A stretch of 24,840 nt of DNA from Minisyncoccia bacterium (GTDB taxonomy: Bacteria; Patescibacteriota; Minisyncoccia; UBA6257; 2-01-FULL-56-20): positions 1-24,840 of the forward strand of contig JBMFRD010000002.1 of assembly GCA_049968295.1 (NCBI GenBank). Reading direction: 5' to 3'. Positions 5,233 through 9,564 of this stretch are shown in pieces (the first letter of the stretch is position 1; each line of letters starts with the position of its first letter). The notes beneath the pieces were generated by a model, which saw only the letters and a program-made list of their open reading frames with translations, did no database searches and had not been told where the DNA came from. Position numbers and translations under genes: made by a program.

Positions 5233-5748
5233 ATGAAAAAAATATTATTTATATTTTTAATTTTACAGATATTTAATTTTTTAATGGTTAAATTTGCTTT
5301 AGCTGAAGCAAAATTTCCTTATTGGGGCCCAATAATGAGTTGCAATACTTCATCTACTGATACTTCAGTTGGAGTGACAGATCCTTCAAAAAAAGCTAAT
5401 TTAGGAAGATATGCTGATCCCTGTAGTAGTTTATGCGATTTAATTGCTACTGGCCAAAATGCAATTTATCTTGGTATAACTTTAGCTTTATTTGTTTTAG
5501 CGCCAATTTTTTTTGTAGTTGGTGGGTTTTTGATGATTATTTCGCGCGGCAATCCTCAAAATCTTCAAAAAGGAAAAGATATTTTTAAAAATACAGTTTG
5601 GGGAGTTGTGATTGTGCTTATGGCTTTTGTTATTATAAACACTTTTTTTGTTATTTTAGCGCCAAAACTTGGGAGTAAATCATATAGTTGGTCAAACATT
5701 CAATGCCCGGCTAATTTGCCCGGAAAAGTGGAGTGGGGGAATTTTTAA
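5233..5748 (+). CDS. CPR pilin (TrbC/VirB2-like, T4SS_pilin type)
   Basis: Signal peptide ending ALA-EA; CSSLCDL, then two hydrophobic helices separated by SRGNPQNLQKGKD; Cys near the C-terminus. Confidence 0.8.
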   Translation: MKKILFIFLILQIFNFLMVKFALAEAKFPYWGPIMSCNTSSTDTSVGVTDPSKKANLGRYADPCSSLCDLIATGQNAIYLGITLALFVLAPIFFVVGGFLMIISRGNPQNLQKGKDIFKNTVWGVVIVLMAFVIINTFFVILAPKLGSKSYSWSNIQCPANLPGKVEWGNF

Positions 5749-5809: not shown

Positions 5810-7339
5810 ATGAATAAAAAAACCGTAGTTTTAGTAATTTTAGACGGATTAGGCATTGGTCTAGAAAGAGAAACTAATCCTTTTTATGCTGCTCGGCCTC
5901 AAAATTTAATTGAATTAGGGAAAAATTATCCTTTAACTAGTTTGTCTGCTTCTGGAATTGCGGTAGGATTGCCTTGGGGCGAAGAGGGAAATTGCGAAAC
6001 CGGACATTTAATTTTAGGCGCTGGAAAAATTTTTTATCAAAATTATCCTTTAATTACTATGGCAATTAAAGATGGTTCTTTTTTTAAAAATGAAAAATTA
6101 AATCAGGCCTTTGATTTTGTAAAACAAAATAATTCTAAAATAAATTTTGTTGGGCTTTTAAGCAGCGGCATTTCAGAATCAGCTTTAGAGCATATCGAGG
6201 CTTTAGTAAAATTAGCTGAAGAAAAAAATGTTAATTATGTATTTCATTTTTTTGCTGATGGCGAAGATAGTCCGCCGCGGTCTTTTTTAAATCTTTTAAA
6301 AAATTTTTCTAAAGATAAATTAGGTTCAGTTATTGGCCGTTATTATGCTTTAGACCATAAAAATAATTTAAATTTAGTTAAAAGAGCTTATGATTGTTTG
6401 GTTGGGCAGATTCAAGAAAATCCTAATTTTGAAGCAGTAATTGAAAATGCTTATAGCAGGGGGACAAATGATAATTTGCTTCCTCCAATTTTAATTGATA
6501 AAAATAAAGCTATTAATGACAATGATGCAGTTTTGTTTTTTAATTTTCGGGAAGATAATATGCGAGCTTTAGTTGAAGTCTTTGCTGATCCAAATTATCA
6601 AAAATTTGAATCTAAAAGAATTAATAATCTTTTTGTAATTACAATGGTTCAATATTCTAATCGATTTAACTTGCCAGTTGTTTTTGAGCCGCAAGTAATA
6701 AATAAGCCTCTTTCTTTGGTTTTATCAGAAAATAATAAAATGCAATTTAAAATTTCAGAAAGTTCAAAATATCCTTTAATTACCTTGTTTTTTAATGGTT
6801 TTCATGAAGCGCCTTATGAAAATGAATTTCGAGTTTCTATTCCTTCAAATTTTGAAATTAGTCCAGTTGATCATCCGGAGCTTATGGCTGGGCAAATCAC
6901 AGACAGAGCCATTGAAGCAATTAATGATCAATCTTTTGATTTTATTTTAATTAATTATGCTAATTTAGATATTGTGGGTCATACTGGTAATTTCGACGCC
7001 GCCATAAAAGCAGTTCAGTTTATAGATAACGAAATTGGAAGATTGGTTCGAGTTGGTTTAAATAATGACGTTATTTTTTTAATAACTTCTGATCATGGCA
7101 AAATTGAACAACTGATAAATTTAGAAACTGGCGAGCCGGATGTAGAACATACTAAAAATCCAGTGCCGCTTTATTTAATTGGAAAAAAATTTATTAGGCA
7201 TAAATTTCCAAATTGGAATAATATTGCTAATGAAACCTTAGGTCTTTTAGCTGATGTGAGTCCCACGATTTTAGATTTGTTAGATATTGAAAAACCTGAA
7301 GAAATGACTGGTCGAAGCTTGCTTAATGATTTATTTTAA
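5810..7339 (+). CDS. gpmI: 2,3-bisphosphoglycerate-independent phosphoglycerate mutase homolog with a deviant active site (Ser62->Cys)
   Basis: VVLVILDG, GLPWGEEGNCETGH, GRYYALD, FNFREDN, NYANLDIVGHTG, TSDHG, HTKNPVP. The fold is clear; mutase activity is uncertain. Confidence 0.85.
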   Translation: MNKKTVVLVILDGLGIGLERETNPFYAARPQNLIELGKNYPLTSLSASGIAVGLPWGEEGNCETGHLILGAGKIFYQNYPLITMAIKDGSFFKNEKLNQAFDFVKQNNSKINFVGLLSSGISESALEHIEALVKLAEEKNVNYVFHFFADGEDSPPRSFLNLLKNFSKDKLGSVIGRYYALDHKNNLNLVKRAYDCLVGQIQENPNFEAVIENAYSRGTNDNLLPPILIDKNKAINDNDAVLFFNFREDNMRALVEVFADPNYQKFESKRINNLFVITMVQYSNRFNLPVVFEPQVINKPLSLVLSENNKMQFKISESSKYPLITLFFNGFHEAPYENEFRVSIPSNFEISPVDHPELMAGQITDRAIEAINDQSFDFILINYANLDIVGHTGNFDAAIKAVQFIDNEIGRLVRVGLNNDVIFLITSDHGKIEQLINLETGEPDVEHTKNPVPLYLIGKKFIRHKFPNWNNIANETLGLLADVSPTILDLLDIEKPEEMTGRSLLNDLF

Positions 7340-7355
7340 TTTATAAAATAAATTT

Positions 7356-7715
7356 ATGTGGTTTTTAAAATTTATTTTAGCAATAATTATTAATTTTTTT
7401 GGATTAATTTTTGCTAATCAATATATTTCTGGATTTGTGATTAGTAATAAATTTGAAGACATTTTATTTTTAAGTTTAGTTTTAACTATATTAAATTTTT
7501 TAATCAGACCGATTTTAAAATTAATTTTATCGCCAATAATTTTTTTAACTTTTGGATTAGGAATTTTAGTTGTCAATGGCTTAATTCTTTATTGGCTTGA
7601 CATTTTTTCCAAAAGTCTTAACATACAAAATATCAGCGCTTTAATTTATGGTACTTTAATTTTTAGCATTTTAAATTTTATATATCATCGCGTTACCAAA
7701 AAAAATGACAATTAG
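7356..7715 (+). CDS. Phage holin family 4-like (YvlD-type) membrane protein
   Basis: Four TM helices; LNFLIRPILKLILSPIIFLTFGLGILVVNGLIL signature. Confidence 0.8.
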   Translation: MWFLKFILAIIINFFGLIFANQYISGFVISNKFEDILFLSLVLTILNFLIRPILKLILSPIIFLTFGLGILVVNGLILYWLDIFSKSLNIQNISALIYGTLIFSILNFIYHRVTKKNDN

Positions 7716-7920
7716 AATTATACAATCAATTATTGGGGTTTTAATTATTATTTTAATTTTATTACAAGAACGTTCTACTGGACTTTCGGCTATTTTTGGC
7801 GGAGAAGGTGGTTTTTATCAAACCAGACGCGGAATTGAAAAAATTATTTTTATAGGAACAATTGTTTTATTAATTGTTTTTGTGAGCTTGGGATTATATT
7901 CTATTTTTGCTTTAAAATAA
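7705..7920 (+). CDS. secG: Preprotein translocase subunit SecG
   Basis: Two TMs flanking LILLQERSTGLSAIFGG...TRRGIEK. Confidence 0.9.
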   Translation: MTIRIIQSIIGVLIIILILLQERSTGLSAIFGGEGGFYQTRRGIEKIIFIGTIVLLIVFVSLGLYSIFALK

Positions 7921-7926
7921 TTTTGA

Positions 7927-9564
7927 ATGCTTTCTTTTTTTAAAAAAATATATTTAAATTTAACTTCAGTCGAAAAAAAATTATTATTAATTTTTAGTTT
8001 AAGTTTACTTATTTCTGTTTTTTTATTAGTTTTTAATTTTTTAAAAAATTCTACAATTGAAGTTCCAAAATCTGGAGGCGAAATTAAAATAGGCGTAGTT
8101 GGTCAACCCGAAAATCTTAATCCAATTTTAGCTAAAAGTAATGCGGATAAAAATTTAGTTAAATTATTGTTTGCTCCGCTTTCTAAATTAGCGGATAAAA
8201 TTGAGCCAATTTCAGATTCAAATCTTTGGCGGTTGCGGCTTAAGGAAAATATTTTTTGGTCTGATGGCAAAAAAATTACAAGCGATGATATTATTTTTAC
8301 AATTTTAAAAATAAAAGAAGCTCAAAACGAATCAGATTTTTATTCTTTTTGGCGAGGAATTGAAGCAAATAGAATAAGCGAATTAGAAGTACAATTTAAT
8401 TTAGGAGAAAAATATAGTTTTTTTAAAGAGGTTTTAGATAATTTTTATATTGCGCCTAAACATATTTTTGCTGATTTGCCAATTTTAAATTGGCATCTTT
8501 CAGAATATAATTTTAAACCAATATCTAATGGCTTCTATAAATTAGATTCAATAAATATTGAAAAAAATGGATTCATTTCTAATGCGCTTTTAAAACCAAA
8601 TGAATTTTATTTAGAACAAAAACCCTATACTCAGTTAAACATTAAATTTTATCCAGATAAAGAAAATTTATTAAAAGCTTTTAATACCGGGGCAATTGAT
8701 GTTTTGGCTTTAGATGATTTTGAAAATTTAAATAAAATTAAACGACCTTATAATTTAAATCTTTTTCCGGTTTCAAATTATTATGCGGTTTTTATAAATC
8801 AATCCCAAAATTTAGCTTTAAAAGAAATTGAAGTTAGAAAAGCAATGAGTTTGAGTATTAATCGAGATAAATTAGTTTCTGATGTTTCTAATAATTATTT
8901 TGCTCCGGTTTTTGGGCCGCTGCAATGGTTTAGTCAAGCTAAAAATTTAAAAGATGAATTTAAGCCAGATGAAGCTTCAAAAATTTTAGAAGATGCTGGT
9001 TGGAAATTAAATGATCAAGGCGTTAGAGAAAAAAACATAAAAAACAATATTATTCAATTAAATTTTAAATTAATTGTTCCGGATATTGATTTTCTTTTAA
9101 AAACTGCTGATTTTTTAGCTGAAAATTGGTCAAAAATTGGAATTAAAATTAATATTTTAAAAATTAATCCTAAGGATTTGCTTTCAAATAATATTTTAAA
9201 CAGAGATTATGAATTAATTCTTTTTGGCAACGCAATTTATCCTAAATTTAATCTTTATCCTTTTTGGCATTCGGCTTTTATTTTTTATCCGGGCCTAAAT
9301 CTTTCTTTATATAAAAATGATTTGGTTGATAAATCATTAGTTGATCTTTATCAAAAAACAAATATTAATCAAGAAGAAACTATTTTAAATATTTTACAAA
9401 ATATTAAAAACGATTATCCAGCTATATTTCTATACCAACCTAAAATTTTATTAATTTCATCTAAAAATATTTATGGTATTAATGAATTTTTAATTTATAA
9501 TTTTGAAGATATTTTTTCCAATGCTAAAGATTGGTATTTAAAAACCAAAAGAATTTTTAAATGA
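7927..9564 (+). CDS. Peptide/nickel ABC-type substrate-binding protein (family 5, OppA/DppA-like), membrane anchored
   Basis: LRLKENIFWSDGKKITSDDIIFT family-5 signature, GVVGQPENLNPI, VRKAMSLSINR, ILEDAGW; N-terminal TM helix. Confidence 0.88.
   Translation: MLSFFKKIYLNLTSVEKKLLLIFSLSLLISVFLLVFNFLKNSTIEVPKSGGEIKIGVVGQPENLNPILAKSNADKNLVKLLFAPLSKLADKIEPISDSNLWRLRLKENIFWSDGKKITSDDIIFTILKIKEAQNESDFYSFWRGIEANRISELEVQFNLGEKYSFFKEVLDNFYIAPKHIFADLPILNWHLSEYNFKPISNGFYKLDSINIEKNGFISNALLKPNEFYLEQKPYTQLNIKFYPDKENLLKAFNTGAIDVLALDDFENLNKIKRPYNLNLFPVSNYYAVFINQSQNLALKEIEVRKAMSLSINRDKLVSDVSNNYFAPVFGPLQWFSQAKNLKDEFKPDEASKILEDAGWKLNDQGVREKNIKNNIIQLNFKLIVPDIDFLLKTADFLAENWSKIGIKINILKINPKDLLSNNILNRDYELILFGNAIYPKFNLYPFWHSAFIFYPGLNLSLYKNDLVDKSLVDLYQKTNINQEETILNILQNIKNDYPAIFLYQPKILLISSKNIYGINEFLIYNFEDIFSNAKDWYLKTKRIFK

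Follow-up and report, generated by a model that had tools for sequence, protein, structure and literature searches.

We describe an unusual gene in a 24,840-nucleotide stretch of DNA from a Minisyncoccia bacterium of the Patescibacteriota (contig JBMFRD010000002.1 of GenBank assembly GCA_049968295.1, positions 1 to 24,840; hereafter the window, with a G+C content of 29%). The gene encodes an ortholog of cofactor-independent phosphoglycerate mutase (iPGM) in which cysteine has taken the place of the nucleophilic serine, the residue that every version studied has; it belongs to a small clade of Patescibacteria with tiny genomes. This Ser-to-Cys change has been kept by selection, and the protein is the sole candidate of a known family for the phosphoglycerate mutase (PGM) step in a genome whose lower glycolysis is otherwise complete. 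Our leading, tentative reading is that the protein still interconverts 3-phosphoglycerate and 2-phosphoglycerate, now via a metal-bound thiolate. We infer both this chemistry and this substrate, guided by orthology, pathway need, constraint, an intact protein and chemical precedent, and put the probability of the reading at roughly 0.45. The protein would thus be either a classic enzyme that has come to work with a thiol or one that has taken on a different function.

The gene and the residues discussed are listed below. Canonical residues carry the numbers of Geobacillus stearothermophilus GpmI (marked Geobacillus where the two differ), and residues of the window protein are numbered by their place in its 509 amino acids. 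Clade refers to the group of Cys-type homologs described further on, and Ser-type to homologs that retain the serine.

5810-7339, forward strand: Cys-type iPGM ortholog, 509 amino acids, open frame without a stop
5843-5845, forward strand: Asp12, metal ligand (Geobacillus Asp12)
5993-5995, forward strand: Cys62, codon TGC, at the phosphoserine nucleophile position (Geobacillus Ser62), motif GNCETGH
6176-6178, forward strand: Glu123, codon GAA, replacing His123 (Glu in 15 of 15 clade members, His in 50 of 50 Ser-type relatives)
6263-6268, forward strand: Glu152-Asp153 (Geobacillus Arg153-Asp154), in the clade Glu, Lys or Ile followed by Asp, Asn or Glu
6338-6340, forward strand: Arg177 (Geobacillus Arg185), kept, Arg in 15 of 15 clade members
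6356-6358, forward strand: His183 replacing Arg191 (in the clade His in 11, Asn in 4)
6548-6559, forward strand: Arg247 to Asn250, R-E-D-N (Geobacillus Arg261 to Arg264), with Arg261 kept and Asn at 264
6767-6778, forward strand: Lys320 (Geobacillus Lys336; Lys or Arg in the clade) and Leu323 replacing His339
6968-6982, forward strand: Asp387 and His391 (Geobacillus Asp403 and His407), metal ligands in NLDIVGH
7091-7096, forward strand: Asp428-His429 (Geobacillus Asp444-His445), metal ligands in TSDHG
7148-7150, forward strand: His447 (Geobacillus His462), metal ligand

The window protein has the full-length two-domain architecture of an iPGM, with the Pfam Metalloenzyme domain (PF01676, residues 4-494) split by iPGM_N (PF06415, residues 82-283). 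This corresponds to a phosphatase domain of about residues 1-76 plus 311-509 and a transferase domain of about residues 77-310. The equivalog model TIGR01307 was passed with 455.7 bits (cut-off 330.65), while the stricter NCBIfam model NF003897 scored 368 bits, below its cut-off of 862. The DeoB model TIGR01696 reached 15.9 bits over the C-terminal core only, with no full-length match above cut-off. The protein could be aligned end to end with the solved iPGMs 5VPU, 7TL8, 4MY4, 1O99, 1EJJ and 2IFY (E values 7e-96 to 7e-88). An AlphaFold2 model (mean predicted local distance difference test score 95.7, predicted template-modelling score 0.91) superposes on the open Bacillus anthracis iPGM 2IFY with a template-modelling score of 0.91, and on the Staphylococcus aureus and most Caenorhabditis elegans chains with scores of 0.86-0.89.

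All six ligands of the two-metal centre are present (D12, D387, H391, D428, H429 and H447), while the serine that characterises iPGM/GpmI at position 62 is Cys. The phosphoglycerate site, which we take to consist of Geobacillus His123, Arg153, Asp154, Arg185, Arg191, Arg261, Arg264 and Lys336, is half retained: Asp154, Arg185, Arg261 and Lys336 are kept, and His123, Arg153, Arg191 and Arg264 are replaced. The roles of these residues reportedly come from the Geobacillus structure work of Jedrzejas et al. in 2000 (cited in PMC5382265). The original prediction, made on the window alone, had named the TGC-encoded Cys62, the intact metal ligands and four pocket changes, and each of these sequence statements is correct. 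It had missed a further fixed change, Leu323 at the His339 position, which is His in 30 of 30 Ser-type relatives of the same family and 20 of 20 from other families of the order. We refer to the protein as a Cys-type iPGM variant rather than a verified GpmI, because it lacks the nucleophilic Ser and half of the residues of the phosphoglycerate site, while architecture, fold, metal ligands, model score and orthology all fit.

A search of 5.8 billion proteins retrieved 14 clusters at 57-100% identity to the window protein, after which the next best match drops to 51%. Cys62 and Glu123 occur in all 14 clusters, and everything below the drop has Ser62 and His123. An iPGM was found in 123 of 125 species genomes of the same family, with the Cys form only in the genome of the window (G000), in G276 (same genus, 72% identity) and in G219 (another genus, 57%); it was not seen in any of the 200 genomes sampled across the order. 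A maximum-likelihood tree built from 91 sequences groups the 16 Cys sequences in one clade with a Shimodaira-Hasegawa-like approximate likelihood ratio support of 100. Its stem of 0.46 changes per site is long compared with other inner branches, and its sister group comprises all of the family's Ser-type iPGMs (joint support 99). The clade consists of two genera of one Patescibacteria family together with metagenome contigs. All its members share Cys62, Glu123 and Leu at the His339 position, with the motif C-E-(T/A/V)-G-H (C-E-T-G-H in the window genome). The suggestion that Cys62 and the pocket changes might define a conserved clade is thereby confirmed.

The Cys codon was found in 8 independent assemblies from different samples (GTDB genomes and ENA, JGI and Logan contigs), as TGC in four and TGT in four. 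The corresponding codon is AGC or AGT in 14 Ser-type relatives, so that the founding change amounts to a single A-to-T transversion. When the DNA of 400 other Patescibacteria genomes was searched with the pattern G-[N/S]-C-E-x-G-H, which covers that motif only and lets Cys variants with other motifs escape, the two matches obtained lay in frames of 59 and 26 amino acids and are attributable to chance. The Cys clade is thus a small and rare one. Cys62 itself appears in at least three further places in the tree (P0145, P0163 and P0175).

Conservation was compared position by position across 15 Cys-type sequences, 30 Ser-type orthologs of the family, 20 sequences from other families of the order and 140 broad representatives. 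Cys62, the six metal ligands, His66 and Arg185 are invariant in all 15 clade members, down to 56% identity; position 62 is Ser in each of the 50 family and order relatives. Ser62Cys, His123Glu and His339Leu are fixed in the clade, and the residues they replace show no exception in the same 50 relatives and occur in 86-93% of the broad set. Arg191, also Arg in all 50, has become His (11 members) or Asn (4). The Ser-type family orthologs already carry Lys at Arg153 (27/30) and Ser at Arg264 (29/30), indicating that these two changes largely predate the Cys clade. Hence, while the four pocket changes originally listed are all present, two of them are for the most part older than the cysteine. Within the clade 166 of 509 positions are invariant. 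Conversely, 19 positions that are invariant in the Ser-type family set vary among the Cys sequences, and the newly variable sites include Val64 and Thr68 in the nucleophile helix.

The ratio of non-synonymous to synonymous substitution rates (omega) is 0.11-0.15 for the three closest Cys pairs, at a synonymous divergence (dS) of about 0.5. Our argument is restricted to close pairs, as omega is unreliable for deep pairs, in which dS reaches or exceeds about 0.8-1. When G000 is compared with G276, the iPGM has an omega of 0.24, enolase one of 0.21 and gyrA one of 0.10, while the neighbouring binding and pilin-like proteins reach 0.32-0.40. The divergence of the transferase domain relative to the phosphatase domain is 1.04 in the Cys clade, compared with 1.26 in the Ser-type orthologs, which indicates that the substrate-binding half of the Cys-type protein is not relaxed relative to the phosphatase half. 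The combination of fixed replacements and shifted constraint reads, from the alignments, as the trace of a changed mechanism or substrate rather than of simple decay. The original view that this is not an ordinary mutase stands, given that the nucleophile and several near-invariant pocket residues are replaced and the replacements conserved across the clade. The accompanying option of a pseudoenzyme or a decaying gene finds no support, in light of the invariant Cys62 and metal ligands, the low omega and the unrelaxed transferase domain.

The G000 genome (599 kb, 95% complete) encodes triose-phosphate isomerase (TPI, contig C48), glyceraldehyde-3-phosphate dehydrogenase (GAPDH) and enolase (both C11, with a 2-hydroxyacid dehydrogenase between them), phosphoglycerate kinase (PGK, C18) and pyruvate kinase (C1). 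Alignment with canonical enolases shows every catalytic motif to be present in the enolases of G000 and G276. Each of these two genomes has exactly one Metalloenzyme-family gene, which in G000 is the Cys-type iPGM; the same search was positive in control archaeal genomes, so an archaeal-type PGM would have shown up. The original prediction had proposed looking for a second gpmI or gpmA. None was detected in G000 by TIGR01307, PF01676 or PF00300, except for a domain inside isoleucyl-tRNA synthetase (IleRS), and G000, G276 (78% complete) and G219 (88% complete) have one iPGM each and no free-standing cofactor-dependent PGM (dPGM) of the histidine-phosphatase type. The lack of a second PGM alongside the remaining lower-glycolysis genes points towards a protein that is still the mutase rather than one of new specificity. 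Jaffe et al. described the lower pathway as patchy in the candidate phyla radiation, and suspected that some Parcubacteria PGMs are 'too divergent to be recovered' (PMC7304191).

The family's enolases are of some interest in themselves. The native enolase is short and divergent, scoring 230-370 bits. In four genomes of one genus (G252:C22, G247:C25, G251:C26 and G250:C11; loci L069, L070, L072 and L074) a canonical enolase of about 600 bits adjoins a distant iPGM of 34-37% identity to the window protein, which is the only iPGM match in three of the four. This arrangement looks like an acquired eno-gpmI pair. Another pattern was seen in a genus whose five genomes all have a canonical Ser-type iPGM and in none of which enolase was found.

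In iPGM, an active-site Ser of the phosphatase domain receives the phosphate from the substrate and, once the glycerate has changed its orientation, gives it back to the other hydroxyl, in a reaction that involves two Mn2+ ions (PMC12077085, PMC5382265). In the C. elegans iPGM the nucleophilic Ser coordinates Zn2+ (PMC5382265). In the Cys clade, the Ser nucleophile became Cys on one ancestral branch by one base (AGC to TGC), and the glycerate pocket was partly remodelled (His123Glu, Arg191His/Asn, His339Leu). The step served would most likely be the conversion of 3-phosphoglycerate to 2-phosphoglycerate in fermentative lower glycolysis. The two-metal centre is intact, and its second metal would bind the Cys62 thiolate, which would attack the substrate phosphate to give an S-phosphocysteinyl enzyme. 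Four retained residues (Arg177, Arg247, Lys320 and Asp153) and three new ones (Glu123, His183 and Asn250) would hold the glycerate, which would then turn and take the phosphoryl group back on its other hydroxyl. Being a soft ligand, the thiolate would probably move the metal preference from Mn2+ toward Zn2+, Fe2+ or Co2+. The longer C-S and S-P bonds would also shift the transferred phosphate toward the cap domain, and such a shift could explain why His123, Arg191 and His339, which face it, were altered on the same branch. Chemical precedent comes from a Cys thiolate bound to an iPGM active-site Zn at 2.28 Å (PMC8113725) and from the S102C variant of alkaline phosphatase, and the Thr62 iPGM variants lend further support (both described below). 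We are a little more guarded about the proposal in full, namely that the window protein is a natural thiol-nucleophile member of the alkaline phosphatase superfamily, forming an S-phosphocysteinyl intermediate and acting as the sole PGM, with a co-adapted pocket (Glu123, His183, Leu323) and a metal preference probably shifted off Mn2+.

The most serious alternative is a change of function. The two-metal core and a working cap would be kept while phosphoglycerate is no longer handled, and the protein would use a phospho-substrate that is less anionic, neutral or cationic, either as its phosphatase or as its phosphomutase; Cys62 would be the nucleophile or a mere metal ligand. We regard this as possible, if less probable than a retained mutase, and several observations weigh for it and against a thiol-based mutase. 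His123, Arg191 and His339 are kept in all 50 Ser-type relatives and in 83-88% of the 140 broad representatives, and all three are replaced in the clade. The cationic positions His123, Arg153, Arg191 and Arg264 are now Glu, Glu/Ile/Lys, His/Asn and Asn, the charge at 123 is reversed, and several pocket-side positions have turned hydrophobic (W14L, H103F, N121I, H323L). Substrate-site positions have become variable within the clade, including Asp154 (D in 10, N in 4, E in 1), Arg191 (H or N), Lys336 (K in 10, R in 5) and the Tyr preceding Lys336, and the Arg153 position varies between E, K and I; other positions, for example 191-197, are newly invariant in the Cys clade only. Such a combination of varying substrate-site positions and new invariants would, judged from the alignments, be the usual signature of changed function. 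The long stem (0.46) followed by conservation also counts for such a change. The omega values of Ser-type pairs (0.03-0.10) lie below those of the Cys pairs, with dS saturated in the former.

Similar pocket changes are seen elsewhere. His123 and Arg191 are lost, and with them the canonical pocket, in two of the three other Cys62 representatives (P0145 and P0163). His339Leu recurs together with loss of His123, Arg191 or both, metal sites intact, in the Patescibacteria homologs P0147, P0163, P0180 and P0189, of which P0147, P0180 and P0189 have Ser62. Enolase was found in 86 of 125 family genomes (60 of 87 of high quality), as against 123 of 125 for iPGM, so the family's iPGM is kept in genomes without enolase and is not strictly coupled to it. 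Finally, iPGM is capable of phosphatase action, and a review of the superfamily lists Ser, Thr and formylglycine as nucleophiles and no natural thiol (PMC3693508).

Against a changed function, a genome with TPI, GAPDH, PGK, enolase and pyruvate kinase would be left without a known PGM, and the enolases of G000 and G276 are intact and under constraint similar to that of the iPGM. The gene has no new context or partner, its synteny being ancestral (see below), and no candidate substrate emerged from gene presence. Two specific roles were considered and rejected. Take-over of a phosphohexomutase (GlmM/PGM) function offers no contrast, as PGM_PMM_I, which the three Cys-type genomes lack, occurs in no more than 52 of the family's 125 genomes. 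Take-over of the phosphopentomutase role is disfavoured in the same way, deoB being absent from both Cys and Ser types.

It is unlikely that another protein performs the PGM step and has freed the iPGM for a new role, a scenario that could be combined with a changed function or with a non-catalytic protein. The sole candidate is a histidine-phosphatase domain (PF00300, about 160 amino acids, residues 501-660 of a partial open reading frame) embedded in IleRS (TIGR00392, 861 bits in two stretches) at G000:C8:13393-16872 (L004:1-3480, minus strand), and G000 has no other His_Phos_1 domain. The embedded domain retains the RHG, R, E and H core motifs, and its best NCBIfam match is an archaeal-type dPGM model. 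That match, at 95.5 bits, is far under the cut-off of 225, and models for an RNase H/acid phosphatase (89.8 bits) and a cobC phosphatase (73.9 bits), also below cut-off, come next. Furthermore, the insert is family-wide, occurring in G276, G219 and the Ser-type genomes G146 and G281, and hence offers no explanation for a change specific to the Cys clade. G146 and G281 contain, in addition, a second open reading frame of about 950-1030 amino acids with a stronger His_Phos_1 match.

A non-catalytic or regulatory protein, in which Cys62 would lock a metal in place as a permanent ligand and serve in binding, scaffolding or metal sensing, appears slightly less likely again. Degenerate metal or pocket residues are common among iPGM homologs of the Patescibacteria (e.g. 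P0123, P0126, P0139 and P0158), and in the S102C variant of alkaline phosphatase the Cys has become a ligand of a zinc to which the Ser was not bound (PMC8938923). In the clade, by contrast, the metal ligands, His66, Arg185 and Cys62 are without exception conserved and both domains are constrained, with an omega about that of enolase, a pattern expected of an active site and not of a scaffold. Conversion of Cys62 to formylglycine was rejected as unlikely: the motif in the window genome is C-E-T-G-H and not C-x-P/A-x-R, neither a formylglycine-generating enzyme (FGE, PF03781) nor a SPASM radical-SAM maturase (PF13186) was matched in G000 or G276, and a scan of G219 gave only a 19.5-bit SPASM match below cut-off. 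A sequencing or assembly error, or a private decaying allele, can be dismissed given the 8 independent assemblies with both synonymous codons, the 16-sequence clade, the intact frame and an omega well below 1.

The iPGM gene is flanked by an SBP_bac_1/8 gene and by the following neighbours.

5233-5748, forward strand: type IV secretion system (T4SS)-pilin-like protein, directly upstream of iPGM
7356-7715, forward strand: 119-amino-acid membrane protein (Phage_holin_4_2), downstream of iPGM in Cys-type and Ser-type genomes
7705-7920, forward strand: 71-amino-acid open reading frame at the place of the relatives' secG (PF03840), assigned by position, SecG being called in syntenic contigs
7927-9564, forward strand: SBP_bac_5 solute-binding protein, last gene of the conserved block

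The block of iPGM, holin-like gene, (secG) and SBP_bac_5 gene recurs in other Cys-clade contigs and also with the canonical Ser-type iPGM in genomes of sister genera (G278, G232, G218 and G242). The Cys gene is therefore the positional ortholog of the family's Ser-type iPGM. The original prediction had noted that the gene sits among envelope genes; this is accurate as a description, but it fails as a functional argument, since the Ser-type orthologs hold the same place and the neighbourhood carries no functional message. The first 11 bases of the 71-amino-acid frame lie within the end of the holin-like gene. Other bacteria have a glycolytic operon together with secG, and the order of iPGM, an intervening gene and secG may be left over from such an arrangement. 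In another Cys-clade contig (L083:1744-4673), PrgI-like, TraC-like and VirB4/TraG-type ATPase genes lie upstream, and a type IV secretion or conjugation-like module thus borders the iPGM locus in some members.

The phosphoserine mechanism of iPGM is a textbook case, and we found no description of a natural Cys-iPGM in open-access full texts. The organism seems to make its living by lower glycolysis, and a selected, conserved Cys in its only PGM candidate represents a natural experiment on the choice of nucleophile in two-metal phosphoryl transfer. If active, the enzyme would add phosphocysteine chemistry to the alkaline phosphatase superfamily and could reveal how the pocket adapts together with the metal preference. 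Should the protein turn out not to be a mutase, these genomes would have an unexplained gap at a central step, and their automatic 'gpmI' annotation would be wrong.

Among known systems, Geobacillus GpmI (1EJJ, 1O98, 1O99) and the iPGMs 2IFY, 4MY4, 5VPU and 5KGN share with the window protein their length, the two-domain fold and about 34% identity (E values 7e-96 to 5e-89). The Geobacillus enzyme has the same six metal ligands as well as His66, Asp154, Arg185, Arg261 and Lys336, and differs at Ser62 (Cys in the window protein), His123 (Glu), Arg153 (Glu), Arg191 (His), Arg264 (Asn) and His339 (Leu). The Ser-type orthologs of the family (labelled Ca. Liptonbacteria, Paceibacterota or Patescibacteria group; P0016, P0022, P0024) are closer, with the same locus and gene order, 44-52% identity and one copy per genome, but retain Ser62, His123, Arg191 and His339 in 30 of 30 cases. 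DeoB and the Thr62 iPGM variants (P0164, P0178, P0254) are Metalloenzyme-family mutases with a residue other than Ser at the nucleophile position, and show that mutase chemistry can survive a change there. In these, Thr is an oxygen nucleophile, and the Thr62 iPGMs keep the whole canonical pocket, indicating that the nucleophile position is not immutable. More broadly, the Patescibacteria-type iPGM homologs (P0123-P0271) are unusually labile at 'invariant' sites, with Gly or Pro at position 62 in P0125, P0160 and P0241 and loss of metal ligands in P0123, P0126, P0130, P0139, P0144 and P0158.

Outside the mutases, Cys-type sulfatases and phosphonate monoester hydrolases belong to the same superfamily and have an encoded Cys at the nucleophile position, but in their case the Cys is part of C-x-P/A-x-R, and FGE or a radical-SAM/SPASM maturase turns it into formylglycine by oxidation. 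A further counterpart is the engineered S102C variant of Escherichia coli alkaline phosphatase, again of the same superfamily, whose metal-bound Cys ligates Zn and which transphosphorylates with retention of configuration, although its authors caution that the mechanism may differ (PMC8938923). That enzyme is a laboratory mutant of a hydrolase, whereas the Cys-type iPGM would be a natural, selected variant of a mutase.

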